Assembly (NCBI GenBank): GCA_017856385.1
Contig: JAFMFD010000009.1
Span: forward strand, 10-64,009
Direction: 5' to 3'
Source: Actinomycetota bacterium
GTDB taxonomy: Bacteria > Actinomycetota > Actinomycetes > S36-B12
Length of the DNA: 64,000 nucleotides
Notes under the pieces: generated by a model
What the model was told of the DNA's origin: nothing
The model's input: the letters and a program-made list of their open reading frames with translations, nothing else
Databases searched by the model: none
Position numbers and translations under genes: made by a program
Part shown: positions 21,693 to 39,958 of the stretch, in pieces
How positions within the stretch are numbered: the first letter of the stretch is position 1
Layout: each line of letters begins with the position of its first letter

Positions 21693-21775
21693 TCTGGATA
21701 ACTATCTGCGCAAAGTGGATAGATCCTCGGGCCCGGCTGCCCGATAGTGGCCCTCAGCACCCAGAAGGAGGAGAC

Positions 21776-22876: not shown

Positions 22877-22892
22877 GTGGTAGGCAGGTGAC

Positions 22893-23507: not shown

Positions 23508-24261
23508 AGCGGCCGCCGTTGACGTCGAGCACCGCACCGGTGATGTACGACGACTGATCACTGGCCAGGAACAGCACTGGATCGACGCACTCGCTGATCG
23601 CGGGCATCCGCCGCAGCGGGATGGAGTCGAGAACCTCGTCACGGTCATGCTCGCTCATGGCATCGAACATGCCCTGCAGCCGACCGGTGAGGAACAGCCC
23701 GGGGGCGATGGCGTTGACGCGGATGCCGTCGGGGCCCACCTCGCGGGCGAGGCGCCGGGTCAGGCCCAGGATGCCGGCCTTGGCCGCGGCGTAGGGGATG
23801 CCGGTGACCGGGCTCGTGCTGCGTCCACCGATGGAGGAGAAGGTGACGATCGAGCCGCCGCCCGCGGCGCGCATGTGGGGCACGCTGGCCACCGCACAGT
23901 GGTAGGTGCCCTTGATGTTCACGTCGATGACCAGGTCGAGGTCGGCGGGCGAGATGTCCTCGAGATCGCGGGGCGTTCCCAGTGATCCGCCGGCTGCGGC
24001 GACGAGGACGTTCAGGCCCCCCAGCTGCGCGGCTGCGGCGTCGACGGACTCGCGCACGGCGTCGGGGTCGCGGACGTCGACGACAGCGCCGCGGGCGGGG
24101 ATCCCCGCCGCCTGGAGGTGCTGCAGCCCTGACGTGAGGGCCTGCTCGCTGGCGTCGACAAGCCAGACGGAGGCCCCCTCGCGCCCCAGGGCTTCGGCGA
24201 TGGCCAGGCCGAGCCCGCCGCCACCCCCGGTGACGAGGGCGACCCTTCCGGTGAACCGCAT
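23494..24261 (-). CDS. SDR family oxidoreductase
   Basis: TGGGGGLG cofactor motif, NVLVAAAG, catalytic S...YAAAK. Its 3' end overlaps the convergent flavin reductase by 14 nt. Confidence 0.85.
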
Positions 24262-24384
24262 GGTTCATCCTCCCGCACGAGGTCGCGATGGGCTCCGGAT
24301 GCCTATCTGCCCGACCAGATATACCGTACTATTGTCGACAGTCACAAATACGCGAGATACTCTGAGGCCGTGAGGGGAGCGCCA

Positions 24385-26742
24385 ATGCGGATCGCGGTCA
24401 TCGGTGGTGGCCCCGGCGGCCTGTACTTCTCCAGCCTGATCAAGCAGCTCGACCCCTCGACCGACATCACCGTGTGGGAGCGCAACGCCCCCGACGACAC
24501 CTTCGGGTTCGGCGTGGTCTTCAGCGACCAGACCCTCAGCGGCATCCGGGCCTCCGACCCCTCCGTCTTCGCGGACATGGGCCGCTCCTTCGCCTACTGG
24601 GACGACGTCGACGTCGACATCGACGGGGTCCGCTTCACGGTCGCGGGCAACGGCTTCGCGGCGATGAGCCGCAAGGAGCTGCTGCATGTCCTGCAGGGCC
24701 GCGCGCATGACCACGGCGTCCCTATCCACTTCAGCACCGAGGCCCCGCCCGTCGAGCAGCTGATGGCCGAGTACGACCTCGTCATCGCGTGCGACGGCAT
24801 CAACAGCGCGGTGCGCGAGCAGTTCGCGCAGGAGTTCGGCACGACGGTGGATCCGCGGGTGTGCAAGTACATGTGGCTGGGCACCGACCTCGTCTTCGAA
24901 GCCTTCGAGTTCTTCATCCGCAACACCCCCTACGGCGTGATGCAGGTGCACGCGTACCCGATGGACGCACACATGAGCACCTTCATCGTCGAGATGCACG
25001 AGGACGTCTGGCGTGCTGCCGGGTTCGACGCCGTCGATCCGGCGTCGCTGCCGCCGGGTGTGAGCGATGAGGCCAGCATCGCGAAGATCAAGGAGGTCTT
25101 CGCCGACGTGCTCGAGGGTCACTCGCTCGTAGCCAACAACAGCAAGTGGGTCGCCTTCCGCACGATCCGCAACCAGACGCTCGTGCACGGCAACCTCGTC
25201 CTGATGGGCGACTCTGCGCACACGGCCCACTTCAGCATCGGCTCCGGTACCAAGCTCGCGATGGAGGACGCGCTCGCCCTGGCGGCCTGCGTGCGGGAGC
25301 AGCCCACGGTCGAGGCAGCCCTGAAGGCCTACGACCAGGAGCGCGGCCCCGTCATCAAGAGCACGCAGCGCTCAGCACAGGCCAGCCTGGAGTGGTTCGA
25401 GGAGTTGTCGCAGTACTCGGGGCAGGACCCGGTGCAGTTCGCGTTCAACCTGATGACCCGCAGCCGTCGCATCACGTACGGCAACCTGCAGGAGCGCGAC
25501 CCCTCCTTCGTCCGCCAGGTCGACGACTGGCTGCTCGAGCACGAGATCGCGCGCGGTCGTGTGCCTGCGGGCACGGCCAGCGTGCCGCCGATGTTCCTGC
25601 CGTACCAGGTGCGGGGCGTGCTCCTGCCGAACCGAGTCGCGGTGTCCGCCATGGACATGTACTCGTGCGTCGACGGCGTTCCCGGTGACTTCCATCTCGT
25701 CCACCTCGGCAGCAAGGCGCTCGGCGGCGCCGGCCTGGTCATGACCGAGATGGTCTGCGTGTCAGCCGAGGGTCGCATCACCCCCGGGTGCGGCGGACTG
25801 TGGAACGACGAGCAGGAGCGGGCCTGGAAACGCATCGTCGACTTCGGCCACACCACCTTCGCGAAGATGGGCATCCAGGTCGGCCACTCCGGTCGAAAGG
25901 GCTCGACGAAGCTCATGTGGGACGGCATCGACCAGCCGCTCGACGAGGGCAACTGGCCGATCCTGGGCCCGTCGCCCCTGCCCTACCTGCCACACAGTCA
26001 GGTACCGGCCGAGATGACCCGGGCCGACATGCAGGAGGTGCTCGACCAGTTCGTCGAGACGGCCCAGCGCGCGGCGCGAGCAGGTTTCGACGTCCTTGAG
26101 CTGCACTGCGCGCACGGCTACCTGCTGTCCAGCTTCCTGACCCCGGTGTCCAACCAGCGCACCGACGAGTACGGCGGCTCGCTGGAGAACCGGCTGCGGT
26201 ACCCGCTCGAGGTCTTCGATGCGGTGCGCGCCGCCTGGCCGGAAGACCGCCCGATGTTCGTGCGCATCTCGGCCACCGACTGGGTACCCGATGGCATCTC
26301 CTTCGACGACGTGCTCGCCATCGCCGGTGCCTTCAAGGATCACGGAACCGACGTCATTGACGTGTCCTCCGGGCAGACCACGCCCGATGCCAAGCCCCTG
26401 TACGGCCGCTCCTACCAGACGCCGTTCTCCGACCGGATCCGCAACATCGTCGGCATCGACACCATGGCCGTGGGTGCGATCAGCTCGTGGGACGACGTCA
26501 ACACGAACATCGCCGCAGGCCGATCCGACCTGTGCGCGATCGGGCGCCCCCACCTGTACGACCCGCAGTGGACCCTGCATGCCGCAGCCGACCAGGGCGT
26601 TCAGGTGCCGTGGCCGCTGCCGTACGTCGGCGGCAGCTGGAAGCCTCCTGCCGGTCGTGCGGAGGACCCCAAGCCGCGGCTCGAGCTCGTTCCGCAGAGC
26701 ACGTCAGTCAATCGACCGAAGCGCTGGCGGCCGCACTCCTAG
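24385..26742 (+). CDS. bifunctional FAD aromatic monooxygenase / Old-Yellow-Enzyme-type NAD(P)H:flavin oxidoreductase (salicylyl-CoA 5-hydroxylase / 2-aminobenzoyl-CoA monooxygenase-reductase family)
   Basis: N-terminal [14 protein letters not shown] (GxGxxG) ...[23 protein letters not shown]-terminal half [12 protein letters not shown]...[12 protein letters not shown]...[14 protein letters not shown] = OYE fold. About 785 aa single chain; SD GAGGGGAG before ATG 24385. Confidence 0.75.
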
Positions 26743-26804: not shown

Positions 26805-27578
26805 ATGTCCGACCTTGCGAAGCTCGCCGCAGGACTCGTCGACGGTTCGGTGCAGGTCATCGACCTCACCTCGCCGCTGCACTCGGGGACACCGATCCTC
26901 GCGCTGCCGCCGGAGATGGGCCAGACGGCCGTCTTCGAACTCGAGGAGATCAGCCGCTACGACGATCGCGGGCCTGCCTGGTACTGGAACAACTTCCGCA
27001 CCGGCGAGCACACGGGCACGCACTTCGATGCCCCGAACCACTGGGTGACGGGCAAGGATCTCGATGACGTCAGCCAGGTTCCTGCCCAGCGCCTCGTCGG
27101 GCCCGCCGTGGTGATCGACAAGACCGCTGAGGTGGCCGCGAACCCGGACTACTGCCTCTCGCTCGACGACGTCAAGGCGTGGGAGGCCGAGAACGGCCCG
27201 CTGCCTGAGCACGCCTGGGTTCTGTTCCGCACGGGCTGGTCGCAGTACGGCGACGATCCGGCGGCGTTCGCCAACGCCGACGAGAACGGTCCGCACACCC
27301 CCGGCGTGACGCCCGAGGCGGCGCGCTACCTGGCCGAGAGCACCGACATCCTCGGCTGGGGGGTCGAGACCGTCGGCACCGATGCCGGTGGCGCCTTCGC
27401 GTTCGACCCGCCGTTCCCGTGCCACGCGATGTTCATGGGCGCCAACAAGTACGGCCTGACGCAGCTGCGCAATCTCGACAAGCTGCCGGCGAGCGGCGCG
27501 GTCGTGATCGCGGCTCCGCTGCCGATCGTCAAGGGCTCGGGCAGTCCCTGCCGGGTCCTGGCGCTGGTCGCGCGCTAG
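26805..27578 (+). CDS. cyclase-family metal hydrolase (kynurenine formamidase / isatin hydrolase family)
   Basis: ATG 26805 after GGAAAGGAAG. Signature GEHTGTHFDAPNHW (HxGTHxDxPxH). Confidence 0.8.
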   Translation: MSDLAKLAAGLVDGSVQVIDLTSPLHSGTPILALPPEMGQTAVFELEEISRYDDRGPAWYWNNFRTGEHTGTHFDAPNHWVTGKDLDDVSQVPAQRLVGPAVVIDKTAEVAANPDYCLSLDDVKAWEAENGPLPEHAWVLFRTGWSQYGDDPAAFANADENGPHTPGVTPEAARYLAESTDILGWGVETVGTDAGGAFAFDPPFPCHAMFMGANKYGLTQLRNLDKLPASGAVVIAAPLPIVKGSGSPCRVLALVAR

Positions 27579-27591: not shown

Positions 27592-27612
27592 GGACCTGCA
27601 GGGATCAGGTCC
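27592..27612. terminator. hairpin between convergent genes (possible bidirectional terminator)
   Basis: GGACCTG-cagggat-CAGGTCC, 7-bp stem, overlapping the stop of the minus-strand gene. No U-tract. Confidence 0.3.
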
Positions 27613-29173
27613 GCAGCAGGCGCGACGCCACCTGGAAGCCCGAGCCTCCACCGAGGCCCGGGCCCGGGTGCGTCGACGCGCCGATCTGCCAGAGCCCCTC
27701 GATGCCGGTGTCGTGACCGGTGGCCGTCGCGAGCGGCCGCCACAGGGCGTACTGGTCGACCCGGCAGTCGCCCGCGTAAGGATCTCCGCCGACGAGGTTG
27801 ACGTTCATCGCCTCGAGATCGGTGGGACCGAGCGCGAACTGCGCGATCGCGGCACTCCGGATGTTGGTGATGTGCCGTTCGAGGATTGTGATGACGCGGT
27901 CGGCGTAGGCATCGCGCAGCTGAGGCGTCCAGGTGCCGTCGCCGGGGTCGATCTCGCCCGCGAGGTCGCCGAGGACGTGCCGCGGATTCTCCTGGAGCTG
28001 GATCCACAGCAAGCCCTGGCCCTCCGGCACGCGCGAGGGATCCACCGTGGCGGGCTGGCCCACGACGATGGTCGGGCGCCGGGGGAGCAGGCCGCGGTTG
28101 GCCGCGTTGACCGACTCCGACAGCGAGTCCATGCTGTCGAGGATGTGCACGAGGGCGGTGCCTGCCATCCGCGGATCACCCGTCCAGCGCGGCGGCTCGC
28201 GCAGCGCGATGTGGATCTGGAAGCCCGCGCGACCGAAGCGGAAGCGTTCTGCTGCGGCCCGGCGCGCGGCGTCGGCCTCGGGGGCAAGGGTGCCGTAGAG
28301 CGCGGGCGGGGTGACCGAGGCGAGCACCGCACGCCTGGCGCCGATCGCGGTGCCGTCGGCGAGGACGACACCGGTGGCCCGGTTGCCCGTGACCGTCACC
28401 TTCGCTACGTCCGCGCCGCACAGCACTGTCCCGCCGTTGTCCTCGATGATCGACACGAGCGCGCTGACCAGGCTGCGACCACCGCCGACGGGCACGGGCA
28501 TCCCGCCCATCGCGATCGCGGCACCGATGACGGTGGTGATGAAGGCGCTGCCGGCGTCGTCAGGGCCGAGCCCGTTGTGCAGTGCCCACGGGGTGAGCAG
28601 CGCCCGGGTCACGGGTGAGCTGAACGTGCGCTCGGCCCAGGGTGCGGCGGGCTCGAGCAGGTCGGCGCCACTGGCGGCCAGGCCGTCGCGCCCGAGGCGG
28701 CGGTAGGCCTTCCAGCCGAACTTCCAGGCCGAGCGACGCCAGAAGTCGGTGCCGAGCAGGCCGAACGCGAGGTCGGCCTTGCTGCCGAAGTCGGTCATCA
28801 GTGCGGTCCAGGCCTCGAGGTCGCCGAGCTCGGCCATCTGGGCCGCCGTGATCTCGGGGTTGGACGACAGCACGGCACTGCCGTCGGCGCACACGACCCC
28901 GGTGGGCAGCTCGGTGTTGACGTACTCCAGGCCGCGCGCGGCAAGATCGTCGGCGAGTGCGCCGTAGGCGGGGCCACCGACGAAGAGAGGGTGCCAGCTG
29001 GAGAGCAGCTCGATGGTGAAGCCGGGCACGTGCTCGGTCGACGTCCAGATGGCGCCGCCGGGATGGGCGTTGCGCTCGCACAGCGTGACCGACCATCCCG
29101 CACGGGCCAGCAGGGCTCCGGCGACGAGGGCGTTGATCCCGCTGCCGATGATGACGACGTCGCGCTGCTCCAT
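27605..29173 (-). CDS. NAD(P)/FAD-dependent oxidoreductase, phytoene desaturase (CrtI)/amine-oxidase superfamily
   Basis: MEQRDVVIIGSGINALVAGALLARAGWSVTLCERNAHPGG (dinucleotide fold). C-terminal GASTHPGPGLGGGSG. ATG 29173 after GGAGGTG. Confidence 0.75.
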   Translation of the reverse strand: MEQRDVVIIGSGINALVAGALLARAGWSVTLCERNAHPGGAIWTSTEHVPGFTIELLSSWHPLFVGGPAYGALADDLAARGLEYVNTELPTGVVCADGSAVLSSNPEITAAQMAELGDLEAWTALMTDFGSKADLAFGLLGTDFWRRSAWKFGWKAYRRLGRDGLAASGADLLEPAAPWAERTFSSPVTRALLTPWALHNGLGPDDAGSAFITTVIGAAIAMGGMPVPVGGGRSLVSALVSIIEDNGGTVLCGADVAKVTVTGNRATGVVLADGTAIGARRAVLASVTPPALYGTLAPEADAARRAAAERFRFGRAGFQIHIALREPPRWTGDPRMAGTALVHILDSMDSLSESVNAANRGLLPRRPTIVVGQPATVDPSRVPEGQGLLWIQLQENPRHVLGDLAGEIDPGDGTWTPQLRDAYADRVITILERHITNIRSAAIAQFALGPTDLEAMNVNLVGGDPYAGDCRVDQYALWRPLATATGHDTGIEGLWQIGASTHPGPGLGGGSGFQVASRLLRT

Positions 29174-29238
29174 GAGCACCTCCAGTCTCACCGTATATCG
29201 CCGGTGTGTCGGTCGTCAGTTCTCCATATGATCCGGCC

Positions 29239-30774
29239 ATGGAACTCGATGCCATCGTCATCGGCGCCGGAGTCAACGGGCTGTCCGCTGCGGCGCTGCT
29301 GGGAGCCAAGGGCCGACGCGTGCTGGTGCTCGAGGCCAATCCCGTCCCGGGCGGTGCGGTCCAGACCGCCGAGGTCACGCTGCCGGGATTCCGCCACGAC
29401 CTCTTCGCCATGAACCTCGGCCTGTTCGCCGGTGGACCGGTCGTGGCCGCTCTCGGTGAGCGACTGGCCGCGCACGGGTTCGCGCTGGTGCCCTCGGCCA
29501 AGCCGTTCTGCTCAGTCTTCCCCGACGGCTCGATGCTCGGTGTGGAGGCCGATGTCGAACGCACGGTCGCCAACGTCGCTGCGGTCGCCCCCGAGGACGT
29601 CCGCGCGTGGCAGGAGCTGACGGAGTATCTGGGCCAGGTGGCCCCCACCCTGATCGGTGTCCTCGGCGCTGAGATGCCGTCGCGCTCGCTCATGACGACG
29701 ATGTGGAAGGCGCGTCGGCAGTTCGGCACCACCGGGGTGCTCGAGATCGCCAAGCTTGCGCTGTCGTCGACGCGCGCCTTCACCGAGGAGCACTTCGAGT
29801 CGCCGCGGACGCGCGCCCTCATGGCGTCCTGGGGCATGCACCTGGACTTCGCGCCGGACCTCGCTGGCGGTGCCCTCTTCTCCTTCCTCGAGACGATCGG
29901 CGGGCAGCTGTTCGGCATGGTGATCGGCCAGGGGGGCGCGAGCACCATGATCAACGCGCTCGTCGGCGTGATCGAGGAGTCCGGCGGTCGCGTCGCCTGC
30001 AATGAGCGCGTCACCGAGATCATCGTCGAGAGCGGACGTGCCGTGGGCGTGCGCACCGCCCAGGGGGCGGAGTACCGGGCCTCGCGCGGCGTCATCGCCA
30101 ACGTCAATCCGCGGCTGGTCCCGGCGCTGCTGCCCGAGGACCAGCGGTCCCGGCCCGATGTGGCGCGGGCCGAGACGTTCCGCCCGGGCCTGGCGACGAT
30201 GATGATCCACCTTGCGCTGGACGACTTGCCGGCCTGGACCGCCGAGGGCGCCCGCGACTTCAACTACGTGCACATCGGGCCCTACCTCGACGACATGGCG
30301 ATGACCTATACGCAGGCGGCCGCCGGGCTCCTGCCCGACTCGCCGACCCTCGTCGTCGGCCAGCCGACGGTCAGCGATCCGAGCCGGGCGCCGGAGGGCA
30401 AGCACGTGCTGTGGGTGCAGGTCCGGGTGCTGCCGCTGCACCCGCGCGAGGGCTCGTGGGACGAGATCGGTGAGGCATACGCCGACGGGGTGATCGACAA
30501 GATCGAGCAGTACGCGCCGGGGCTGCGCTCCCGGATCCTCGGGCGCAAGGTCCTCACGCCCGCCGATCTCCAGCGCGCCAATGCCAACCTCGTGCTCGGG
30601 GACTCGCTCGGCGGCAGCCATCATCCGGCGCAGTTCTTCTTCCTGCGGCCGGTGCCGGGCTGGTGGCGGCATCGGACGCCGGTCGACCGGCTGTTCGTCT
30701 GCGGTGCCGGGACGTGGCCGGGCGGCGGCGTGGGCGGCGGCTCGGGGGCGCTGGTGGCTGCAGCTGTCGGCTAG
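29239..30774 (+). CDS. NAD(P)/FAD-dependent oxidoreductase, CrtI/amine-oxidase superfamily (paralogue of 27605-29173)
   Basis: MELDAIVIGAGVNGLSAAALLGAKGRRVLVLEANPVPGG. Collinear with the divergent neighbour through ...TLVVGQPTVSDPSRAPEGKHVLWVQ... and C-terminal GAGTWPGGGVGGGSG. Confidence 0.75.
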   Translation: MELDAIVIGAGVNGLSAAALLGAKGRRVLVLEANPVPGGAVQTAEVTLPGFRHDLFAMNLGLFAGGPVVAALGERLAAHGFALVPSAKPFCSVFPDGSMLGVEADVERTVANVAAVAPEDVRAWQELTEYLGQVAPTLIGVLGAEMPSRSLMTTMWKARRQFGTTGVLEIAKLALSSTRAFTEEHFESPRTRALMASWGMHLDFAPDLAGGALFSFLETIGGQLFGMVIGQGGASTMINALVGVIEESGGRVACNERVTEIIVESGRAVGVRTAQGAEYRASRGVIANVNPRLVPALLPEDQRSRPDVARAETFRPGLATMMIHLALDDLPAWTAEGARDFNYVHIGPYLDDMAMTYTQAAAGLLPDSPTLVVGQPTVSDPSRAPEGKHVLWVQVRVLPLHPREGSWDEIGEAYADGVIDKIEQYAPGLRSRILGRKVLTPADLQRANANLVLGDSLGGSHHPAQFFFLRPVPGWWRHRTPVDRLFVCGAGTWPGGGVGGGSGALVAAAVG

Positions 30775-31568
30775 CGGAACGGCCCGAAGTCCGGCGGGCG
30801 CTTCTCGATGAAGGCCGCGCCGCCCTCCTTGGCCTCGGGGGTGTCGACGTAGAGGTCCAGCACGTCGAACGCGAGCGCCTGGATGCCGACGATGTGGTCG
30901 GTATCGGCGTTGAACGAGTGCTTGAGCGTCTTCAGCGCCGTGGGAGACAGGGCGCAGGCCTTGCGTGCCCACTCCATTGCCAGAGGCATGAGCTCGTCGG
31001 GCTCGACGACGCGATTGACCAGGCCCCAGCGCTCGGCGGTCGCGGCGTCGTACTGATCGCAGAAGAACCAGATCTCGCGTGCGCGCTTCTCGCCGACGAC
31101 GCGGGCGAGGTAGGCGGTGCCGAAGCCCGCATCGAAGCTCCCGACCCGAGGCCCGACCTGACCGAACCGGGCGGTGGAGGACGCCAGCGACACGTCGCAC
31201 AGCACGTGGAGGACATGGCCGCCGCCGATCGCGAAGCCGTTCACCGCGGCGATGACCGGCTTGGGCACCTCGCGCACGAGGCGGTGCAGGCGCTCGACCT
31301 CGAACATGCCGATCTCGGTCTCGCCGTACCCGCCGGTGGCGGCGCGCTCCTTCTGATCGCCTCCGCTGCAGAAGGCCTTGTCGCCGGCGCCCGTCAGGAT
31401 GATGGCGCCGACCTCGGAGTCGACCCAGGCGTAGCGGAACGCATAGATGAGCTCATCGACCGTCCGGCCGCGCAGGGCGTTGTAGCGGTCCGGGCGGTTG
31501 ATCGTGACGACGGCGACGTGGTCGTCAACCGTGTAGGTGATGTCGGTGAACTCTTCGACCCGGATCAT
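30771..31568 (-). CDS. crotonase-superfamily enzyme of the MenB / BadI clade (naphthoate-synthase-like; candidate 2-ketocyclohexanecarboxyl-CoA-type hydrolase)
   Basis: GDKAFCSGGDQKERAATGGYG...VPKPVIAAVNGFAIGGGHVLHVLCDVSLAS...FGQVGPRVGSFDAGFGTAYLARVVGEKRAREIWFFCDQYDA...RPPDF aligns nearly residue-for-residue with MenB. 265 aa, the short BadI-like length. Confidence 0.8.
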   Translation of the reverse strand: MIRVEEFTDITYTVDDHVAVVTINRPDRYNALRGRTVDELIYAFRYAWVDSEVGAIILTGAGDKAFCSGGDQKERAATGGYGETEIGMFEVERLHRLVREVPKPVIAAVNGFAIGGGHVLHVLCDVSLASSTARFGQVGPRVGSFDAGFGTAYLARVVGEKRAREIWFFCDQYDAATAERWGLVNRVVEPDELMPLAMEWARKACALSPTALKTLKHSFNADTDHIVGIQALAFDVLDLYVDTPEAKEGGAAFIEKRPPDFGPFR

Positions 31569-32737
31569 GTCGCCTCCACGAGAACTGCGATTCCCAAACC
31601 CACGCCGATGCAGGCCGTGGCGATCCCGAGACCGCCGCCTCGGCTGCGCAGGTCTCGTGCCGTGTCGACGATGACGCGGGCCGCTGAGGCGCCCACGGGG
31701 TGGCCGATGGCAATCGCGCCGCCGTGCGGGTTGACCTTCGCGACGTCGATCTCGTCGGCCTCGCGCAGCACGGTGAGCACCATCGCAGCGAAGGCCTCAT
31801 TGATCTCGAACACATCGATGTCGGAGTAGCTGAGCCCGGTGCGGGCGAGCAGCTTGCGCATCGCCGGGACGGGTGCGTTCGCGAACCTGTCGGGCTCGAC
31901 GGCGACGACGGCGGACGCGCGGATGTGGGCGATCGGCTCGGCGCCGAGCTCCGCGGCCACGTCCTCGGAGGTCAGCAGTGCGGCGACGGCTCCATCGGTG
32001 ATGGGCGAGGAGTTGCCCGCGGTGACCGTGCCGTCGGGGGTGAACGCCGGCTTCAGCTCCGCGAGCTTCTCCAGCGTCGTGTCGGCGCGGATGGGCTCGT
32101 CCTGGGTGAGGTCCGCCACGGGGATCGCGAAGCCGTCGAAAACTCCATCGTGCCAAGCCGATGCGGCGAGCTCGTGCGAGCGCAGGGCCCACTCGTCCTG
32201 CTCCTCCCGCGTGATGCCGAGTTCGTGGGCGCTTCGCTCGGCGCAGGCGCCAAGGCTGTCGGTCCAGTGGCTCGGAAAGCGCGGATTGACCAGCCGCCAT
32301 CCGACGGTCGTCTGCGCGGCGGGGGTGTCGGGCCCGAGGGGCAGGTCCTCGCGGCGCACGACGAGCGGCGCCCGGCTCATGCTCTCCACGCCGCCGGCGA
32401 CGATGATCTCGGCGTCCTGGGCCCGGATGGCGCGCGCCGCCTGCACGATGGCCTCCGCGCCGGAGCCGCACAGCCGGTTCAGCGTCACGCCGGGGACCGA
32501 GACGGGCAGGCCGGCAAGAAGGGCGGACATGCGCGCGACGTTGCGGTTGTCCTCGCCCGCGCCGTTGGCGTCGCCCATGACGATGTCGTCGATGCGGGCC
32601 GGGTCGAGGCCCGGGTGGGCGGCGACGAGGTCGGTGAGGACGGTGGCGAGCAGGTCGTCGGGGCGCAGGTGGCTCAGGCCACCCCGGTTCCGTCCGAAGA
32701 CGCTCCGCCGGGCATCGACGAGGACGGCTCCAGTCAT
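31565..32737 (-). CDS. acetyl-CoA C-acyltransferase (thiolase)
   Basis: MTGAVLVDARRSVFGRNRGGL...VTLNRLCGSGAEAIVQAA (active-site Cys)...NEAFAAMVL...NPHGGAIAIGHPVGASA...ATACIGVGLG. ATGA overlap with the crotonase gene. Start taken from ORF-track arithmetic (+/-1 nt against my reading). Confidence 0.85.
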   Translation of the reverse strand: MTGAVLVDARRSVFGRNRGGLSHLRPDDLLATVLTDLVAAHPGLDPARIDDIVMGDANGAGEDNRNVARMSALLAGLPVSVPGVTLNRLCGSGAEAIVQAARAIRAQDAEIIVAGGVESMSRAPLVVRREDLPLGPDTPAAQTTVGWRLVNPRFPSHWTDSLGACAERSAHELGITREEQDEWALRSHELAASAWHDGVFDGFAIPVADLTQDEPIRADTTLEKLAELKPAFTPDGTVTAGNSSPITDGAVAALLTSEDVAAELGAEPIAHIRASAVVAVEPDRFANAPVPAMRKLLARTGLSYSDIDVFEINEAFAAMVLTVLREADEIDVAKVNPHGGAIAIGHPVGASAARVIVDTARDLRSRGGGLGIATACIGVGLGIAVLVEAT

Positions 32738-32748
32738 GTAGCGTATTA

Positions 32749-32762
32749 TTGTCGATCGACAA
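32749..32762. promoter_or_regulatory. perfect 14-bp palindrome TTGTCGATCGACAA in a divergent promoter region (candidate operator)
   Basis: Read directly. It lies ~11 nt from the thiolase ATG and ~64 nt upstream of the SDR ATG, in a locally AT-rich stretch (cgTATTATtgtcg). A related 14-mer is at 24325-24338. Confidence 0.5.
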
Positions 32763-32825
32763 GTTAGCGCAATCGCCAGGGGGCTGCGGCCTTCCTCGTG
32801 ATGGCCGCGTGAGGAGGGGTGGGCC

Positions 32826-33593
32826 ATGGCCGGGCGCCCTGCTCTCCGCTGCCTGGTGACGGGGGCCAGTCGCGGCATCGGGCGGACCATCGCTGAGCAC
32901 CTGGCGGCCGACGGGCACCGCGTGGCGCTGACCGCGCGCACCGTCGGCGACCTCGAGGCCCTCGCTGCCGAGCTCCCCGTCCCGACCCTGGTGCTCCCCG
33001 CGGACGTCACTGACCCGGCGGCCCCGGAGCAGCTGGTCGCTCAGGTCGAGTCCGCCTGGGGCGGCCTCGACGTCCTGGTGCTCAACGCGGGCGAGGCGAT
33101 CTCGGCCCCCGTCCACCGCACGGACGACGAGCTGTGGCAGCAGATGATGGACGTGAACCTCACCGCGCCGTTCCGGTTCATCCGTGCCGCTGTGCCATCG
33201 ATGAAGCAGGCCGGGTTCGGGCGCATCGTCGTCGTCGCGAGCATCGCCTCCAAGGTCGGTGCGCCCTACATCACCGCATACGCCGCTGCGAAGCACGGCA
33301 TCCTCGGCGTCGTGCGGTCGGTCGCGATGGAGGTGGCCACCACGGGGGTCACGGTCAACGCAGTGTGCCCCGGATACGTCGACACCCCGCTCACCGCGCG
33401 GTCGCTGGAGACCATCGTCGCGAAGACCGGCGTCGATCTGGCCACCGCGCGCGCGACCCTCGAGGACGCGCACCCCATCAAGCGACTGATCACCACCGAT
33501 GAGGTGGCCTCGGTGGTCGACCTGCTGGTGGCCGACACAGGGGGCATCAACGGGCAGGGCATCGTCATCGACGGCGGGAGCGTGCAATCGTGA
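32826..33593 (+). CDS. SDR family oxidoreductase (3-hydroxyacyl-CoA dehydrogenase-like)
   Basis: VTGASRGIG, LNAGEA, S...YAAAKHG catalytic motif. Confidence 0.85.
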   Translation: MAGRPALRCLVTGASRGIGRTIAEHLAADGHRVALTARTVGDLEALAAELPVPTLVLPADVTDPAAPEQLVAQVESAWGGLDVLVLNAGEAISAPVHRTDDELWQQMMDVNLTAPFRFIRAAVPSMKQAGFGRIVVVASIASKVGAPYITAYAAAKHGILGVVRSVAMEVATTGVTVNAVCPGYVDTPLTARSLETIVAKTGVDLATARATLEDAHPIKRLITTDEVASVVDLLVADTGGINGQGIVIDGGSVQS

Positions 33594-33988
33594 GCATCGA
33601 GCGGATCAACCCGGGCGACCTCGCCCCGCCCATCGGCTTCTCGCACGCCGTCCTCGCCACCGGCGGCACGCCCGTGCTGCTGGCGGGCCAGACCGCACTC
33701 AACGTCGACGGCGTGATCGTGGGCGAGGGCATCGTCGAGCAGTTCGAGGTCGCCCTCGGCAACCTCATGACGGCTCTGCGTGCGGCGGGGGGCAGCGGCG
33801 AGCACCTGGCCAAGGTCACGATCTTCAGCGTCGACCCGGTCGACTACCGCGCAAACGCCCGGGAGCTCGGCGGCGTCTGGCGACGGCTCGTGGGGCGTGA
33901 GTATCCGGCCATGACGCTCGTCGGCGTGACCCGGCTGTGGGACGACGCCGCCCTCGTCGAGATCGAGGGGATCGCGTTCCTGCCGTGA
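33590..33988 (+). CDS. RidA/YjgF/L-PSP family enamine/imine deaminase
   Basis: 132 aa. INPGDLAPPIGFSHAVLATGGTPVLLAGQTAL...GEHLAKVTIF...PAMTLVGVTRL...VEIEGIA. GTGA overlaps at both ends. Confidence 0.8.
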   Translation: MSIERINPGDLAPPIGFSHAVLATGGTPVLLAGQTALNVDGVIVGEGIVEQFEVALGNLMTALRAAGGSGEHLAKVTIFSVDPVDYRANARELGGVWRRLVGREYPAMTLVGVTRLWDDAALVEIEGIAFLP

Positions 33989-36027
33989 GCGACCTGCAGG
34001 CACTCTGGGCCGCGTCGTCGATCGCCGTGATCGGTGCGACGGAGCGCCCCGGAGCACTGGGACGGCTGCCGATCGAGTACCTGCAGCGCTACGGCTATGA
34101 CGGTGCGATCCACCCGGTGAACCCCCGCAGTGCGAGCATCCTCGGGCTGCCCGCGTACCCGTCGATGCGCGATGTCCCGAGTCCCGTCGACCTCGCCCTC
34201 GTCATGGTCCCGGCCGGGTCCGTGCGCGAGGCCGTGCAGGACTGCGCCGATGCCGGCGTGGGCGTGTGCATCGTGATGAGCTCGGGCTTCGCTGAGGCGG
34301 GCGAGGAGGGAGCCGTCGCGCAGCGCGAGCTCGTCGAGATCGCGCGCGGCGCAGGCATGCGCCTGGTCGGCCCGAACTGCATCGGCTCCGTCGGAGGCCC
34401 GCAGCACGTGGTCGCGTCGTTCTCCCCCGTGTTCTCCTCGCCGTCGACGCCCCTGCCGAGCGGTCGCGTCGGCCTGGTCAGCCAGTCGGGCGCCCTGGGC
34501 TTCGGCACGCTCTCGCTCGGGCTCGAGCGGGGTGTCCCGATCGGCGTCGCGGTGACCACGGGCAACGAGGCCGACGTGACGGCGGCCGAGGTGGCGGTCG
34601 CGCTCGCCGCCGATCCGTCGATCGACGCCCTGCTGATGTACGTGGAGTCGCTCGCCGACCTGCCGCGACTGCGCGCTGCTGCAGGGCAGGTGCCCGTCGC
34701 CATCGTCAAGGCCGGGCGCTCCGCGGCGGGTGCCACGGCGGCGGCGTCGCACACTGGCGCTCTTGCGGCACCGGATGCGATCGTCGACGCGGCGCTGGCG
34801 TCGGCGGGCATCGCCCGCGTGCGCGACATCGATGCGCTGCTCGACGTGGGTGCGCTCCTCGCCACCGGTGCGCGGATGCGCGGCACGCGGATCGGCGTGA
34901 TCACGACCTCGGGAGGAAGCGGCATCCTCGCAGCGGACGCCCTGGAGGCCGAGGGCATGTCCCTGGCCCGCCTGGCGGACGCCACCGTCGCCGACCTCGA
35001 GCGAATCGTTCCGTCGTACGGCAACGCGACGAACCCGGTTGATGTCACCGCTGCCGTGATGGCAGAGCCCGGGCTGTTCGAGGAGTGCCTCGAGCGGCTT
35101 GCGCGGGATCCGCAGGTCGACGCCATCGTGGCCTGCTTCGCAGTGCTGGTGGGCGAGGACGTCGCCCGCATCGCGCGGGCGCTGGGCGCGGTGCGCGCTG
35201 CGACGCAGCTGCCTGTCGTGGCCGTGCGAACCGGGTCGGCCTCGCTCGCACCGCAGGGGGCACAGCTGCTCGCAGAAGCGGGTGTGCCCGTCTATCCCAC
35301 ACCGGAGCGGGCGGTCGCCGCGCTGGCGGCCCTGCATCGTGCCTGCGGCCCGCAGGCGCCGCGACCTGCCGCCTTCCCGTCGCTGGCGGTACCACCGGCG
35401 GATGCCTCCGAGAAGGAGGTCAAGGCCCTCCTCGCGGCCGGGGGCCTGAGCGTGCCGGAGTCGGTCGTGGTGACCTCACCGGCCGAGGCCGCCGGGGCGG
35501 TGAGGGGGGTCGGCGGCCGTGCCGTGCTCAAGGCACAGGTGCCGGGACTTCGGCACAAGAGCGATGTGGGCGGGGTGGCGCTCGATGTCACCGAGGCGGA
35601 CGCCGAGGCGGTCTGCGCCCGACTCCTGCAGCTCGGCGGTGATGTCCTCGTGGAGCGCTTCGTCCCGCAGGGCACCGAGGTCATCGTCGGAGTAACCGGA
35701 AGTCCCCTCGGTGCTGTGCTGTCGGTGGGCGTCGGCGGAGTGTTGACGGAGGTCGTCTCAGACGTCGCGCTGCGCCTGCTGCCCGTGACCGAGGGCGATG
35801 TGGAGCAGATGCTGGATGCCACCATGGTGGGGCGCCTGCTCGCCGGCGTGCGCGGCCAGCCGGCTGGCGACCGTCGGGCGCTCGTCGATCTCATCCTGCG
35901 CGTCGCCGATGGCGTGGCATCGTGGCCCGCGGGCTTCGAGCTCGAGCTCAATCCTGTGACTGTGCTGCCCGACGGCTGCTGGATCCTGGACGCGCTGTTC
36001 GTGACCCCCGCTGCAGAGGAGAACTGA
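33985..36027 (+). CDS. ADP-forming acyl-CoA synthetase (acetate--CoA ligase family: CoA-binding + ligase + ATP-grasp domains)
   Basis: SIAVIGATERPGALG (CoA-binding Rossmann), NCIGS, phospho-His loop AASHTGALA, C-terminal ATP-grasp VLKAQVPGLRHKSDVGGVAL. Confidence 0.8.
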   Translation: MSDLQALWAASSIAVIGATERPGALGRLPIEYLQRYGYDGAIHPVNPRSASILGLPAYPSMRDVPSPVDLALVMVPAGSVREAVQDCADAGVGVCIVMSSGFAEAGEEGAVAQRELVEIARGAGMRLVGPNCIGSVGGPQHVVASFSPVFSSPSTPLPSGRVGLVSQSGALGFGTLSLGLERGVPIGVAVTTGNEADVTAAEVAVALAADPSIDALLMYVESLADLPRLRAAAGQVPVAIVKAGRSAAGATAAASHTGALAAPDAIVDAALASAGIARVRDIDALLDVGALLATGARMRGTRIGVITTSGGSGILAADALEAEGMSLARLADATVADLERIVPSYGNATNPVDVTAAVMAEPGLFEECLERLARDPQVDAIVACFAVLVGEDVARIARALGAVRAATQLPVVAVRTGSASLAPQGAQLLAEAGVPVYPTPERAVAALAALHRACGPQAPRPAAFPSLAVPPADASEKEVKALLAAGGLSVPESVVVTSPAEAAGAVRGVGGRAVLKAQVPGLRHKSDVGGVALDVTEADAEAVCARLLQLGGDVLVERFVPQGTEVIVGVTGSPLGAVLSVGVGGVLTEVVSDVALRLLPVTEGDVEQMLDATMVGRLLAGVRGQPAGDRRALVDLILRVADGVASWPAGFELELNPVTVLPDGCWILDALFVTPAAEEN

Positions 36028-36028: not shown

Positions 36029-37579
36029 ATGGATGTCGGTCGCCTGGTCGCTCGCTCGATGTCCCGCTACCGGGACCGCATCGCGCTCATCGGGCCGGAG
36101 GGCGAGAGCACCTTTGGGCGCACGGGCGGGCGCGCCATGCAGCTCGCGCGCGCGCTGCGCAGTCTGGGCCTGGAGACGGGCGACCGCGTACTCGACCTTC
36201 AGTCGAACCAGAACACCTACATCGAGACCGACCTCGGCATCAGCACTGCAGGGCTGTGCCGCGTCGCACTCAACTACCGGCTCCATCCGAGCGACTGGGT
36301 GCGCATCGCCACCGACTGCTCGCCTCGCGCAATGATCCTCGACGCGAAGTTCTGGGATGACACCGCCGACGTGCGCGCGCTCGTCGACCACGTCATCGTC
36401 ATCAATGGCGAAGCGGACGCCATCCCGTACGAGCGTTTCCTCGGAGAGCAGAGCGCGGAGCCGCTGCTGCTGTCGGTGGATCCGGATGCCCTCGTCTCGC
36501 TCAACTACTCCAGTGGGACGACGGGCCGCCCGAAGGGTGCGATCCGCACCCACCGAAACCGCATGGCGAGCCTGCACAACATGATCACCGACTTCTTCGG
36601 CACGGTCCCCGACGATCGCACGACGTGGCTGCACGCCGGCCCGGTCACGCACACCAGCGGACTCTTCGTGCTCCCGTGCTTCACGTTCGGGGCGACCCAG
36701 ATCGTGCATCCATCCTTCGATGCCGAGGCCGTCGTCGATGCGTTCGAGAACCGCGGGGCCACCGGCACCGCGATGGTGCCGACCATGGTGGCGCGACTGC
36801 TCGCCCTGCCCGACATCTCCCGGGAGCGCATGGCGGGCCTGCAGATGCTGGGCTACGCCGGGGCGCCGATGCCGCCCGAGCAGATCCGCCAGTGCTTCGA
36901 CCGCATCACCCCCCACATGGCGCAGTACTACGGGCTGGTCGAGGCGATTCCTCCCGTCACCGTCCTCGGCCCGGACGACCACGCCCGGGGGATCGCTGGC
37001 GATGTCGAGGTCCTCACCAGCGCGGGCATCCCCTGCAACGGGGTCGAGGTCCGCATCGTGGACGAGGCAGGCGTGGATGTGCCGGTCGGCGAGATCGGCG
37101 AGGTCATCACACGCGGCGACCACGTCATGCGCGGCTACTACGGGCAGGCGGCGGAGGAGGCGACCGTGACCAAGACGGTGCGCGACGGCTGGCTCTACAC
37201 CGGAGATCTCGGGCGCGTAGATGCAGACGAGCGGCTGTACCTCGTCGACCGCAAGGGCGACATGATCATCTCCGGCGGCTACAACATCTATCCGCGCGAG
37301 ATCGAGGACGTCATCGCCTCCGTGCCGGGCGTGCATGAGGTTGCCGTCGTGGGCGTGGAGGACGTGGAGTGGGGCCAGCACGTGACCGCGCTGTTCACCG
37401 TCTTGCCCGGCGCCACGGTCACCACGGAGCAGGTGCTCGACCACTGCCGCACGACCATGGCGTCGTACAAGAAGCCCAAGGACATCCGCATCGTGGACGA
37501 GTTCCCGCTGAACTCCACGGGCAAAATCGCCAAGAAGGTGCTGCGCGAGCAACTCAACAAGGAGGCGCGTGGTGAGTGA
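36029..37579 (+). CDS. AMP-forming acyl-CoA ligase (class I adenylate-forming enzyme)
   Basis: A3 motif YSSGTTGRPKG, YGLVE, A8-like GWLYTGDLGRVD...LYLVDRKGDMIISGGYNIYPREIE, C-terminal GKIAKK. Confidence 0.85.
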   Translation: MDVGRLVARSMSRYRDRIALIGPEGESTFGRTGGRAMQLARALRSLGLETGDRVLDLQSNQNTYIETDLGISTAGLCRVALNYRLHPSDWVRIATDCSPRAMILDAKFWDDTADVRALVDHVIVINGEADAIPYERFLGEQSAEPLLLSVDPDALVSLNYSSGTTGRPKGAIRTHRNRMASLHNMITDFFGTVPDDRTTWLHAGPVTHTSGLFVLPCFTFGATQIVHPSFDAEAVVDAFENRGATGTAMVPTMVARLLALPDISRERMAGLQMLGYAGAPMPPEQIRQCFDRITPHMAQYYGLVEAIPPVTVLGPDDHARGIAGDVEVLTSAGIPCNGVEVRIVDEAGVDVPVGEIGEVITRGDHVMRGYYGQAAEEATVTKTVRDGWLYTGDLGRVDADERLYLVDRKGDMIISGGYNIYPREIEDVIASVPGVHEVAVVGVEDVEWGQHVTALFTVLPGATVTTEQVLDHCRTTMASYKKPKDIRIVDEFPLNSTGKIAKKVLREQLNKEARGE

Positions 37580-39062
37580 GGAGCCGGGCCGGTACCCGTA
37601 CACGCGCGGAATCTCCGCCGATCCCGGGGTGTGGACGATGGGCCAGTACGCCGGCTTCGGCACGGCGGCTGAGACCAACGAGCGGTTCAAGTCCCTCCTG
37701 GCGCAGGGCCTCACCGGCTTCAGCGTGGCCCTCGACCTGCCGACACAGATCGGGCTGGACTCCGACAACGCGCTCTCCCGCGGGGAGGTCGGCAAGGTCG
37801 GCGTGGCCATCGACAGCCTCGCCGACATCGAGGTGCTCATGGATGGCATTGAGTTGGAGCGCATCAGCCAGGTGCGCACGACCGCCAACTCCATCGGCTA
37901 CGTGTGGGCCGCCATGTTCGAGGCGCTCGCGGAGAAGCGCGACGTCGATCCCAACGCGTTCGGCATGTTCATCCAGAACGACGTCCTCAAGGAGTACTTC
38001 GCCCGGGGGACGCAGATCTTCCCGGCGGCCGCCGGCCTGAAGCTCTCGGTGGACGTGATCGAGCACGTCGCGCGCCGGATCCCGCGTTGGGTCCCCCTCG
38101 CGATGAGCGGGTACCACATCCGCGAGGCGGGTTCGAGTGCTGTTCAGGAGATCGCGTTCACCTTCGCCAATGCCCGCGCCTACCTCGATGCGGCCACGGC
38201 TCGGGGGCTGTCGGTCGACGACGTCGCGCCGACCCTGTTCACCTTCCTGTCGAGCAACATGGACTTCATGCCGGAGATCGCCAAGTTCCGAGCGGCGCGC
38301 CGGGTGTGGGCCCGCCTGATGCGGGAGACCTACTCGGCTGCGGACCCGCGGTCGGAGCAGTTGCGCATCTTCGTCTTCACCGCCGGCTCGTCGCTGACGG
38401 CCCAGCAGCCGCTCAACAACGTGGTCCGCACGTCCATCGAGGCCCTGGCGGCCGCGCTCGGAGGAGTGCAGACGATGCACGTGTGCGCCTTCGACGAGGC
38501 GCTCGGCGTGCCTACGGAGGCGGCGGCGACCCTGGCCCTTCGCACCCAGCAGATCGTGGCCTTCGAGACCGGCGTCACCGGCCTGGTGGATCCTCTCGGC
38601 GGCAGCTACCTGCTCGAGGCGCTGACCGATCAGCTTGAGCGCGACATCATGGACGAGATGCACCGGATCGAGCAGCGGGGCGGAGCCCTGAACTGCATCG
38701 AGTCGGGCTACTTCGCCAACGCCCTCTCCGACAGCGCATACGAGCAGGCTCTGGCCGTCGACTCCGGCGAGAAGCCGTTGATCGGCGTCAACCGCTTCGT
38801 GTCCGACCCGGTCTCGTTCGAGGTCTTCGGCATCGATCCGGCGAGCGAGCTCGCCCAGGTGGAGTCACTGGCGCGGATCCGAGCCCAGCGCGACGCCGCG
38901 GCGGTCACAGCAGCCCTCGAGGCCCTGCGTGAGGCAGCGGCGGGCGGCGACAACGTGGTGCCCGCGTGCGTGACGGCGGTGCGCAGCTACGCGACGGTGG
39001 AGGAGATCGCTGACGTGCTGCGTTCGGTGTACGGCACGTGGCAGCCGACCAGCGTGTTCTGA
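37569..39062 (+). CDS. coenzyme-B12-dependent acyl-CoA mutase, large (substrate-binding TIM-barrel) subunit, no B12 domain
   Basis: YPYTRGI...WTMGQYAGFGTAAETNERFK...GFSVALDLPTQIGLDSD...GVAIDSLADIE...IQNDVLKEYFARGTQIFP...MSGYHIREAG...SSLTAQQPLNNVVRT is collinear with methylmalonyl/isobutyryl-CoA mutase catalytic domains. GTG start overlaps the ligase stop. Confidence 0.85.
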   Translation: MVSEEPGRYPYTRGISADPGVWTMGQYAGFGTAAETNERFKSLLAQGLTGFSVALDLPTQIGLDSDNALSRGEVGKVGVAIDSLADIEVLMDGIELERISQVRTTANSIGYVWAAMFEALAEKRDVDPNAFGMFIQNDVLKEYFARGTQIFPAAAGLKLSVDVIEHVARRIPRWVPLAMSGYHIREAGSSAVQEIAFTFANARAYLDAATARGLSVDDVAPTLFTFLSSNMDFMPEIAKFRAARRVWARLMRETYSAADPRSEQLRIFVFTAGSSLTAQQPLNNVVRTSIEALAAALGGVQTMHVCAFDEALGVPTEAAATLALRTQQIVAFETGVTGLVDPLGGSYLLEALTDQLERDIMDEMHRIEQRGGALNCIESGYFANALSDSAYEQALAVDSGEKPLIGVNRFVSDPVSFEVFGIDPASELAQVESLARIRAQRDAAAVTAALEALREAAAGGDNVVPACVTAVRSYATVEEIADVLRSVYGTWQPTSVF

Positions 39063-39945: not shown

Positions 39946-39958
39946 GCCGATCTCCCCG

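Follow-up and report, generated by a model that had tools for sequence, protein, structure and literature searches.

In a 64-kb stretch of DNA from an Actinomycetota bacterium (contig JAFMFD010000009.1; hereafter the window), four neighbouring genes encode a crotonase-fold enzyme, a thiolase, a short-chain dehydrogenase/reductase (SDR) and a RidA-family protein. The four belong to a widely conserved actinobacterial cluster around a flavoenzyme of the ACMR family, and on balance we favour the view that they make up the core of a PaaX-regulated degradation of anthranilate via CoA thioesters, in which the RidA-family protein would remove the amino group of the ACMR product and the crotonase would then open the ring by hydrolysis. 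The anthranilate probably derives from tryptophan or other N-aromatics. Judged from gene context and sequence, it is very probable that the module takes over where ACMR leaves off, and deamination by RidA and ring opening by the crotonase are the best-supported roles that we infer for it.

The discovery of the aerobic, CoA-dependent anthranilate route dates from around 1990, and the pathway for 2-aminobenzoyl-CoA of Azoarcus evansii, with its abm clusters, is said to have been described by Schuhle et al. in 2001. The product of ACMR is 2-amino-5-oxocyclohex-1-ene-1-carboxyl-CoA. To our knowledge, the steps after this dearomatising flavoenzyme have never been demonstrated; a preliminary description of the window, made from its letters alone, had said as much, and our literature search, incomplete in coverage, found no paper showing them. 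In this regard, GapMind 2022 omits the anthranilate CoA pathway 'due to a lack of knowledge' (PMC9007349). For these steps, the four genes stand as the best candidates at present. The module consists of known enzyme families in a new variant, within a known but unfinished pathway, and the gene set yields an enzyme-by-enzyme scheme that makes the unsolved part testable with proteins purified from cultured carriers.

A cluster conserved around ACMR

Since the window has about 70% G+C, genes were picked by third-position GC and profile searches, and their lengths (Table 1) recur unchanged when genes are called independently on the 87-kb metagenome contig from which the window comes. The layout given in the preliminary description agrees with the open reading frames (ORFs) and profile matches: the thiolase and crotonase genes diverge, across a gap of 88 bp, from those of the SDR (SDR_b; a second one, SDR_a, is divergent from ACMR) and RidA. 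The ATGA coupling of thiolase and crotonase is seen at 31565-31568, where the stop of the former overlaps the start of the latter, and the SDR_b-RidA junction, like that between RidA and the following synthetase gene, is GTGA. A maximal thiolase ORF of 481 aa is over-extended. The CoA ligases noted after SDR and RidA are, by domain matches, an ADP-forming synthetase and an AMP-forming ligase, and the operon runs past both into the gene for the large subunit of a B12-dependent acyl-CoA mutase, of which the preliminary description says nothing.

A genome scan gave 80 loci, each of which was searched with proteins of the window, and we counted only those with at least 6 kb on either side of the crotonase gene. 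These 39 loci comprise 19 close ones (Nanopelagicales/acI, crotonase 76-93% identical) and 20 distant ones (67-73% identity; Nocardioidaceae, Geodermatophilaceae, Pseudonocardia, Micromonosporaceae, Chloroflexi and others). Close loci hold the thiolase, RidA and both CoA ligases in 18 cases each, the mutase in 17, ACMR in 16, SDR_a (beside ACMR) in 15, SDR_b in 14 and a PaaX homologue in 8, and the distant loci hold RidA in 12, SDR_b in 11, ACMR and PaaX in 8 each, the thiolase in 6 and the mutase in 3. The cluster is reduced to its minimum in Pseudonocardia eucalypti (L080), where genes for ACMR, RidA, SDR_b and a ligase of the benzoate-CoA-ligase type diverge from those for the crotonase and PaaX. 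Its retention in Nanopelagicales/acI genomes (crotonase at 78-93% identity) bears on the use of tryptophan-derived carbon and nitrogen by these bacteria.

The ACMR-family enzyme joins FAD_binding_3 and Oxidored_FMN domains, scores above the curated cutoff of NF006101 (ACMR / salicylyl-CoA 5-hydroxylase family) and is 61-62% identical to the enzymes of plasmid pAL1 and Rhodococcus. It is predicted to supply the substrate of the module, and the RidA and PaaX context points to anthraniloyl-CoA rather than salicylyl-CoA as its own. The AMP-forming ligase is the sole candidate in the window for anthranilate activation; it is only 27% identical to the benzoate-CoA-ligase-type ligase of more distant clusters.

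RidA accompanies ACMR homologues in three otherwise differing cluster types: that of the window, that of pAL1 (Arthrobacter) and a Rhodococcus erythropolis plasmid, and that of Ralstonia. The abm clusters of A. evansii and the 'lower pathway' of Arthrobacter sp. Rue61a pAL1 (PMC3534580) share with the window an ACMR-family flavoenzyme, a CoA ligase, RidA and a PaaX-type regulator, and a PaaX homologue is also found in the Rhodococcus cluster. However, the pAL1 and Rhodococcus clusters combine ACMR and RidA with a thioesterase, a cupin and a fumarylacetoacetate-hydrolase-family (FAH) gene and have no crotonase, whereas the window has the MenB-like crotonase, the thiolase, the B12 mutase and the ADP-forming CoA synthetase. 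Proteobacterial clusters, as seen in Ralstonia, differ as well, with a MarR regulator, an ordinary enoyl-CoA hydratase, an acyl-CoA dehydrogenase, a ligase and a thioesterase beside RidA and ACMR. On the Ralstonia solanacearum megaplasmid CP076416.1 (10016-13147 of locus L090), ACMR is an uninterrupted 1043-aa ORF, a three-domain fusion of FAD monooxygenase, old yellow enzyme (OYE) reductase and SDR that shows 48% identity to SDR_b over its last 250 residues, which ties the SDR_b type to ACMR; ACMR-family matches occur in 137 Ralstonia records, and the fusion was checked in this one.

The promoter regions tell a similar story. A perfect palindrome, TTGTCGATCGACAA, lies at 32749-32762 between the thiolase and SDR_b genes and is likely a PaaX-type operator. 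The exact sequence occurs once in the window, where sites differing from it by 3 letters or fewer are no more frequent than chance would give, and it is conserved at the equivalent position in related loci. Along 32749-32790, and at the same position in L004-L048, the palindrome is followed by AATAATACG(A/C)(C/T)ACATG, in which the ATG is the thiolase start; lying a few bases past a -10-like box, this start codon suggests a leaderless transcript. The ACMR/SDR_a promoter holds ATTGTCGAC in the same surrounding sequence as the thiolase/SDR_b promoter, and a related site, TGTCGGTCGTCA, lies at 29207 between two genes for FAD enzymes. Moreover, TGWCGNNCGWCA-type sites occur at the equivalent promoters of other ACMR clusters, and TGACGNNCGTCA-type sites at those of the distant loci, pAL1 and the Rhodococcus plasmid; operator counts take in promoter-located sites only. 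The TGACGNNCGTCA-type site reportedly serves as operator for MeqR2, a PaaX-type repressor that responds to anthraniloyl-CoA (Niewerth et al. 2013); our literature search on a MeqR2/PaaX-type operator found nothing. Altogether, the central idea of the preliminary description, a module acting after ACMR, is well supported by conserved synteny, the shared operator, the ACMR-SDR fusion and a distinctive RidA subtype described below.

The crotonase and its partners

The crotonase gene, with a third-position GC of 0.93, matches Pfam ECH_1 over its full length (E=1.4e-66, 224.8 bits vs a gathering threshold of 27). Its top profile and PDB matches are MenB enzymes, but it stays just below both curated MenB cutoffs (PRK07396, 339 vs 380; TIGR01929, 317.1 vs 342.7) and far below that of BadI (TIGR03210, 305.9 vs 467.6). 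The collinearity with MenB noticed earlier is borne out: the enzyme equals the short MenBs in length, aligns without gaps to PDB 2iex and 2uzf and is 50-56% identical to the solved MenBs (2iex, 2uzf, 4els). The GGY and SFD signatures are likewise present, as SGGDQ...GGY and GSFD. From the catalytic set of MenB in Escherichia coli numbering (Gly86, Gly133, Tyr97, Ser161, Asp163, Tyr258) all but Tyr258 are found, the oxyanion-hole glycines as Gly69 and Gly115 and the Ser/Asp pair as Ser143 and Asp145, and the crotonase clade also keeps GGY, Gln154, Gly156 and Trp184. The C-terminal Tyr context that the preliminary description had read does not hold, in that MenB Tyr258 aligns with Val240; throughout the clade this column is V, T, A, L or G and never Tyr, the residue found in both MenB and BadI. 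Next to it, Tyr239 corresponds to Phe257 of MenB and is Y or F within the clade, whose specific conserved residues are Phe106, Glu109, Arg158, Ala164, Phe251 and Leu254.

A small neighbour-joining tree was built with three solved MenBs, one menB lying inside a men operon and two genes named badI by PGAP (in ali/bad contexts, on Cupriavidus and Haematobacter plasmids). In this tree the crotonase groups with neither MenB nor BadI and sits in a third clade, with about 55% identity to each of the two. To BadI, the 2-ketocyclohexanecarboxyl-CoA hydrolase of Rhodopseudomonas palustris, it is related by a predicted retro-Dieckmann hydrolysis of a cyclic beta-keto-CoA ester, about 56% identity, a shared Glu/Asp109 and Leu254, and an SDR gene as a neighbour (adjacent and divergent in the window); yet it lacks the C-terminal Tyr that both PGAP-named BadI sequences carry, its Phe162 and His135 are MenB-like, the window has no aliA, aliB or badK homologues, and its proposed substrate, coming from an amino compound, would carry an extra 5-oxo or 5-hydroxy group. 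The observation that the enzyme is short like BadI is right as to its 265 aa and has no discriminating value, because Firmicute MenBs of 272-273 aa align with it without gaps; size was therefore rejected as a criterion between BadI and MenB. Plasmid-borne members of the clade (57-67% identity) sit in alicyclic or beta-oxidation clusters under the PGAP name 'enoyl-CoA hydratase-related protein', and members without ACMR nearby are found in Azoarcus sp. KH32C, on plasmids of Mycobacterium dioxanotrophicus and Rhodococcus ruber, and in Chloroflexi loci.

As previously stated from the letters of the window, men genes are missing nearby: none was found among the ORFs scanned across its 64 kb. The two thiamine diphosphate (ThDP) enzymes of the window were ruled out as MenD, one being indolepyruvate-decarboxylase-like and the other of the PRK05858 type, and the AMP-forming ligase was discarded as MenE with a score far below the MenE cutoffs. 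In the related loci the homologues detected are catabolic genes, men genes not having been specifically searched there. Many metagenomic homologues of the crotonase (78-100% identity) are nonetheless labelled 'naphthoate synthase' by their sources; names given by JGI and older NCBI records to close homologues also include 'DHNA-CoA synthase' and 'dihydroxynaphthoic acid synthetase', whereas newer PGAP records use 'enoyl-CoA hydratase-related protein'. We regard the MenB label as a probable systematic error of annotation in metagenome-assembled genomes (MAGs) of freshwater Actinobacteria, one that would wrongly suggest menaquinone synthesis.

The RidA-family protein meets the threshold of the wider Rid family (PF01042, 58.4 vs 27.3) and falls far below the cutoff of archetypal RidA (TIGR00004, 38.5 vs 106.25). 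It has the same fold and family as RidA/YjgF (PDB 5yu2, 1xrg), but the PARS motif reads PAMT, which places a Met at canonical Arg105, the residue that binds the substrate carboxylate. This Met is found in 59 of the 62 ACMR-linked RidAs, including those of pAL1, Rhodococcus and Ralstonia (PAM[T/A] for PARS). The protein is predicted to be an enamine/imine deaminase for the ACMR product, hydrolysing the imine tautomer of an enamine as RidA does, but on a CoA thioester instead of a 2-imino acid. As the ACMR product is the sole intermediate common to the three cluster types, this is the most economical reading of their RidAs.

SDR_b carries the motifs TGASRGIG, NAG and YAAAK and has an Arg after beta-2, by which it is a probable NADPH-dependent enzyme and hence a probable ketoreductase, with the ACMR product or a later keto intermediate as its probable substrate. 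It may reduce the 5-oxo group and so block rearomatisation, in which case the route would proceed via 5-hydroxy and 4-hydroxy intermediates and a second SDR would re-oxidise after the mutase. The thiolase passes the general degradative model TIGR01930 (415 vs 240.55) and remains below the equivalog cutoffs of the PcaF/PaaJ-type models (411.8 vs 597 and 414.8 vs 605); the catalytic Cys/Asn/His/Cys motifs are visible in its translation, and its nearest PDB matches are 7vtr and beta-ketoadipyl-CoA thiolases.

Like Hcm, the mutase consists of separate large and small subunits, and the large one has the 2-hydroxyisobutyryl-CoA mutase HcmA (4r3u, 460 bits) as its closest PDB match; its score of 462.7 vs 876 for PRK09426 is set against a model that includes the B12 domain, here encoded separately. 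It keeps Tyr89, Gln197, Arg207, Tyr243 and His244 of methylmalonyl-CoA mutase (MCM; 1req, 2xij), but differs at 11 positions shared by MCM and HCM (R87G, S164R, T195F, R283T, S285F, H328F, S329V/A, Q330F, W334S, S362T and N366C/S/A), strictly conserved in 31 orthologues, and it is linked to a ring-opening crotonase candidate, not to propionate genes. We suggest that it may have a new substrate specificity. Homologues of the small subunit, 66% identical, are present in loci L024, L026, L028 and L030.

A separate arrangement is seen in three Chloroflexi / Limnocylindria MAGs (L051, L056, L059), where the crotonase (72-73% identical) diverges from an operon that encodes a family III CoA-transferase, a thiolase and the mutase. 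The large subunit of the mutase is 70-72% identical there, and ACMR, RidA and SDR_b are not within 10 kb. Crotonase and mutase (72% and 70% identical) are thus co-inherited in Chloroflexi without the other three genes, in what appears to be a portable crotonase-mutase module.

A proposed route and its alternatives

In the scheme that we propose, the ligase would form anthraniloyl-CoA, which the ACMR-family enzyme would hydroxylate and reduce to 2-amino-5-oxocyclohex-1-ene-1-carboxyl-CoA. The RidA lacking Arg105 would then hydrolyse the enamine/imine to ammonia and 2,5-dioxocyclohexane-1-carboxyl-CoA, or to the 5-hydroxy form if the SDR reduced the 5-oxo group first. A CoA ester of composition C7H8O4, assigned as cyclohexanedione-carboxyl-CoA, was seen only in anthranilate-grown Arthrobacter (PMC3534580). 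The crotonase would run the MenB reaction in reverse, adding water to the 2-keto group and breaking the C1-C2 bond, with the thioester enolate stabilised by the oxyanion hole and 4-oxopimelyl-CoA or 4-hydroxypimelyl-CoA as the product. The dione can be regarded as the non-benzo analogue of the Dieckmann product of MenB before aromatisation (a 1,4-diketo-2-carboxyl-CoA pattern, in the keto tautomer), and 4-oxopimelyl-CoA as the analogue of o-succinylbenzoyl-CoA (OSB-CoA). Such a shared pattern would explain why a MenB-like enzyme occupies the cluster instead of an ordinary hydratase and, since a ring without a fused benzene cannot aromatise, the reverse, hydrolytic direction should be favoured.

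The ring opening followed by direct thiolysis that was first put forward thus gains a chemical rationale for its first half, although the catalytic Tyr is missing, and loses its second: the predicted product is a 4-oxoacyl-CoA, not a 3-oxoacyl-CoA, and 4-oxopimelyl-CoA, a gamma-keto ester, is for that reason not a thiolase substrate. The mutase, co-transcribed with SDR_b and RidA, offers a possible way across this gap. Acyl-CoA mutases all move the CoA-carbonyl by one carbon, which would turn 4-oxopimelyl-CoA into 2-methyl-3-oxoadipyl-CoA. The co-inheritance of crotonase and mutase and the altered, conserved pocket speak for this isomerisation, which we nevertheless put forward as speculative and rather unlikely. 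The 3-oxoadipyl-CoA-thiolase-like enzyme would finally give succinyl-CoA and propionyl-CoA, a step for which its closeness to beta-ketoadipyl-CoA thiolases makes it a suitable candidate; a mutase of new specificity feeding that thiolysis is, as a whole, a tentative and doubtful proposal. Our literature search, incomplete in coverage, found nothing on 4-oxopimelyl-CoA metabolism. Three specificities would possibly be new (a RidA for CoA esters, a reverse-MenB hydrolase and a 4-oxoacyl-CoA mutase), and, if the scheme is true, the mutase, the Arg-less RidA and a Tyr258-less MenB relative working in reverse would complete the aerobic anthraniloyl-CoA pathway in Nanopelagicales/acI freshwater Actinobacteria.

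Several observations weigh against this scheme. Tyr258, common to MenB and BadI, is absent, so the mechanism of the crotonase would be no simple copy of either. The proteobacterial ACMR clusters have an enoyl-CoA hydratase and an acyl-CoA dehydrogenase in place of the MenB-like enzyme, and the downstream route is therefore not universal. SDR_b has no necessary role in the simplest version and is missing from 5 of the 19 close loci, and most distant loci lack the mutase within 10 kb. Moreover, Tyr89 and Arg207, which hold the succinyl carboxylate in MCM, are kept in the mutase, so that a methylmalonyl-type enzyme is possible; we do not favour a plain methylmalonyl-CoA mutase, as it leaves the altered pocket unexplained and a linear C7 route yields no propionyl-CoA for it. 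Tryptophan dioxygenase and kynureninase are absent from the window, and the source of anthranilate is therefore not established here, while a gentisate-type dioxygenase, a CN-hydrolase and an FAH gene (18562-21692) could serve a rearomatising route. Finally, no specificity for anthranilate was reported for two C7H10O5 CoA esters of Arthrobacter, and we do not count them as support (PMC3534580).

The same genes could also serve a route that begins with reduction of the 5-oxo group by an SDR and leads, through loss of water and hydrolysis of the imine, to 6-oxocyclohex-1-ene-1-carboxyl-CoA; an Oah/BamA-like crotonase would hydrate this and open its ring to 3-hydroxypimelyl-CoA, the second SDR would oxidise it and the thiolase would release glutaryl-CoA and acetyl-CoA, leaving the mutase unrelated or in charge of a later product. 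The two SDRs conserved in the cluster, the fusion of one SDR type to ACMR in Ralstonia and the apparently NADPH-dependent, reductive nature of SDR_b would suit such a route, and SDR plus thiolase is the standard end of pimelyl-type pathways in what is generally known of benzoyl-CoA degradation. We still judge it improbable, given that the 5-hydroxyl would be gamma to the thioester, a position not activated for elimination, that a dehydratase candidate is absent, that the crotonase belongs to the MenB/BadI and not the Oah branch, and that the crotonase-mutase linkage conserved as far as Chloroflexi would be left unexplained. A lower probability still is attached to mere chance proximity to ACMR, with crotonase and thiolase as a general BadH/BadI-type alicyclic acyl-CoA module for some cyclohexane-carboxylate-like compound. 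The clade members whose alicyclic or beta-oxidation clusters lack ACMR (Azoarcus sp. KH32C, plasmids, Chloroflexi) and the SDR gene that precedes true badI genes fit this explanation, which is opposed by the linkage of the crotonase with RidA and ACMR across several actinobacterial families, by the operator sequences common to the module and the ACMR promoter, and by an operon partner of a deaminase family that a nitrogen-free substrate would make superfluous.

Equally small is the probability that we give to a rearomatising or gentisate-type route, where 5-hydroxyanthraniloyl-CoA or the dione would yield 5-hydroxyanthranilate or gentisate for cleavage by a dioxygenase, RidA would deaminate the ring-fission product, and crotonase and thiolase would act on no cyclic intermediate. 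Among known enzymes of the RidA family there are 2-aminomuconate deaminases, ACMR, thioesterase, cupin, FAH and RidA occur together without a crotonase in the pAL1 and Rhodococcus clusters, and the dioxygenase (gentisate/5-aminosalicylate-dioxygenase-like), CN-hydrolase and FAH genes just mentioned are at hand in the window; but this block is not conserved with the crotonase, the minimal actinobacterial and the Ralstonia clusters keep RidA with no dioxygenase within 10 kb, and RidA is translationally coupled in an operon divergent from that of thiolase and crotonase. It is very unlikely, too, that the crotonase hydrates the enamine double bond (a hydrolytic deamination) or opens a carbinolamine to an amide while another enzyme opens the ring: as counterpart of the ordinary enoyl-CoA hydratase that stands in its place in Ralstonia-type clusters, with an active site changed by the loss of Tyr258 and a CN-hydrolase gene nearby, it might do so, but a dedicated RidA is always present as well, the MenB/BadI-branch enzymes of known activity make or break C-C bonds, and the minimal cluster conserves no other ring-cleaving candidate. 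Scarcely credible, lastly, is a genuine MenB of menaquinone synthesis, to which the top matches and the 'naphthoate synthase' or 'DHNA-CoA synthase' names point; scores below both curated cutoffs, the absence of Tyr258, a separate clade, the lack of men genes among the scanned ORFs, catabolic neighbours in related loci and the current PGAP name contradict it, and we rejected this identity. The crotonase differs from MenB in its clade-specific residues and its catabolic context, and under the scheme of ring opening after ACMR it would also run hydrolytically on a non-aromatic ring.

Other genes of the window

Table 1. Genes and sites of the window discussed in the text, with the matches and readings attached to them.
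Feature	Position	Strand	Basis and reading
SDR_a, second SDR, divergent from ACMR	23494-24261	-	
ACMR-family bifunctional flavoenzyme (FAD monooxygenase + OYE reductase)	24370-26742	+	NF006101 1176.6 vs 1078
Cyclase-family hydrolase (family includes kynurenine formamidase), just downstream of ACMR	26805-27578	+	PF04199 E=2.4e-40
Two divergent CrtI/amine-oxidase-fold FAD enzymes	27605-29191; 29206-30774	-; +	PaaX-type site TGTCGGTCGTCA between them
Crotonase-fold enzyme, 265 aa	30771-31568	-	ECH_1 match, synteny, neighbour-joining tree; predicted ring-opening (retro-Dieckmann) hydrolase
Degradative thiolase, 390 aa, 3-oxoadipyl-CoA-thiolase-like	31565-32737	-	Thiolase_N, Thiolase_C; ATGA overlap
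Divergent promoter region with palindrome TTGTCGATCGACAA	32738-32825	.	Likely PaaX-type operator
SDR_b, classical SDR, 255 aa	32826-33593	+	adh_short E=4.7e-57; probable NADPH-dependent ketoreductase
RidA-family protein, 132 aa, Met at the Arg105 column	33590-33988	+	PF01042; predicted enamine/imine deaminase
ADP-forming acyl-CoA synthetase, fused alpha + beta domains	33985-36027	+	CoA_binding, Succ_CoA_lig, ATP-grasp_5; start read from sequence
AMP-forming acyl-CoA ligase	36029-37579	+	AMP-binding; PRK06187 subfamily 415/476
B12-dependent acyl-CoA mutase, large subunit	37569-39062	+	TIGR00641 551.9; closes the SDR-RidA operon
PaaX-family transcriptional regulator, convergent with the mutase gene	39064-39984	-	TIGR02277 E=4.1e-41, below cutoff
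B12-binding mutase small subunit	42114-42605	+	TIGR00640 168.1 vs 57.45

Beyond the module, the cyclase-family hydrolase carries a EHTGTHFDAPNH motif and gave no NCBIfam KynB match. For the two CrtI-fold FAD enzymes, conserved in Nanopelagicales relatives, the PDB search gave distant carotenoid desaturases only. A search of the window detected no tryptophan 2,3-dioxygenase, acI-type pyridoxal phosphate (PLP) enzyme, benzoate-type ligase or family III CoA-transferase; the acI loci additionally carry a tryptophan-2,3-dioxygenase-family gene. Upstream of SDR_a and ACMR, a block at 18562-23507 encodes a gentisate/5-aminosalicylate-1,2-dioxygenase-like protein (below cutoff), a CN-hydrolase of the nitrilase superfamily, an FAH-family hydrolase, a luciferase-like monooxygenase and a flavin reductase; the closest relatives (L004, L008, L009 and L012) have kept the FAH as well as the monooxygenase and the reductase. 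This block may represent a parallel route through 5-hydroxyanthranilate or gentisate, of the pAL1 kind.

Genes for alpha and beta subunits resembling indolepyruvate:ferredoxin oxidoreductase lie at 14741-18486, the beta subunit scoring above its curated cutoff, and a ThDP enzyme similar to indolepyruvate/phenylpyruvate decarboxylases at 3146-4780. The oxidoreductase-like pair adjoins ACMR in the acI loci too, and these indolepyruvate genes hint at a second tryptophan/indole route or at a 2-oxoacid step of the same pathway. On the other side of the module, between PaaX and the small subunit of the mutase, there are two flavin quinone-reductase-type genes and an AraC regulator; the former encode an ArsH-like NADPH-FMN reductase and a WrbA-type NAD(P)H:quinone oxidoreductase, adjacent to each other at 39959-41151, which might guard against quinone or hydroquinone by-products of dione intermediates. 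Further downstream, 56518-63748 holds the alpha subunit of an NAD-linked formate dehydrogenase with NuoF-like and NuoE-like partners and a formate-tetrahydrofolate ligase, genes that would be relevant if the cyclase-family enzyme freed formate from N-formylkynurenine, their proximity being otherwise coincidental.

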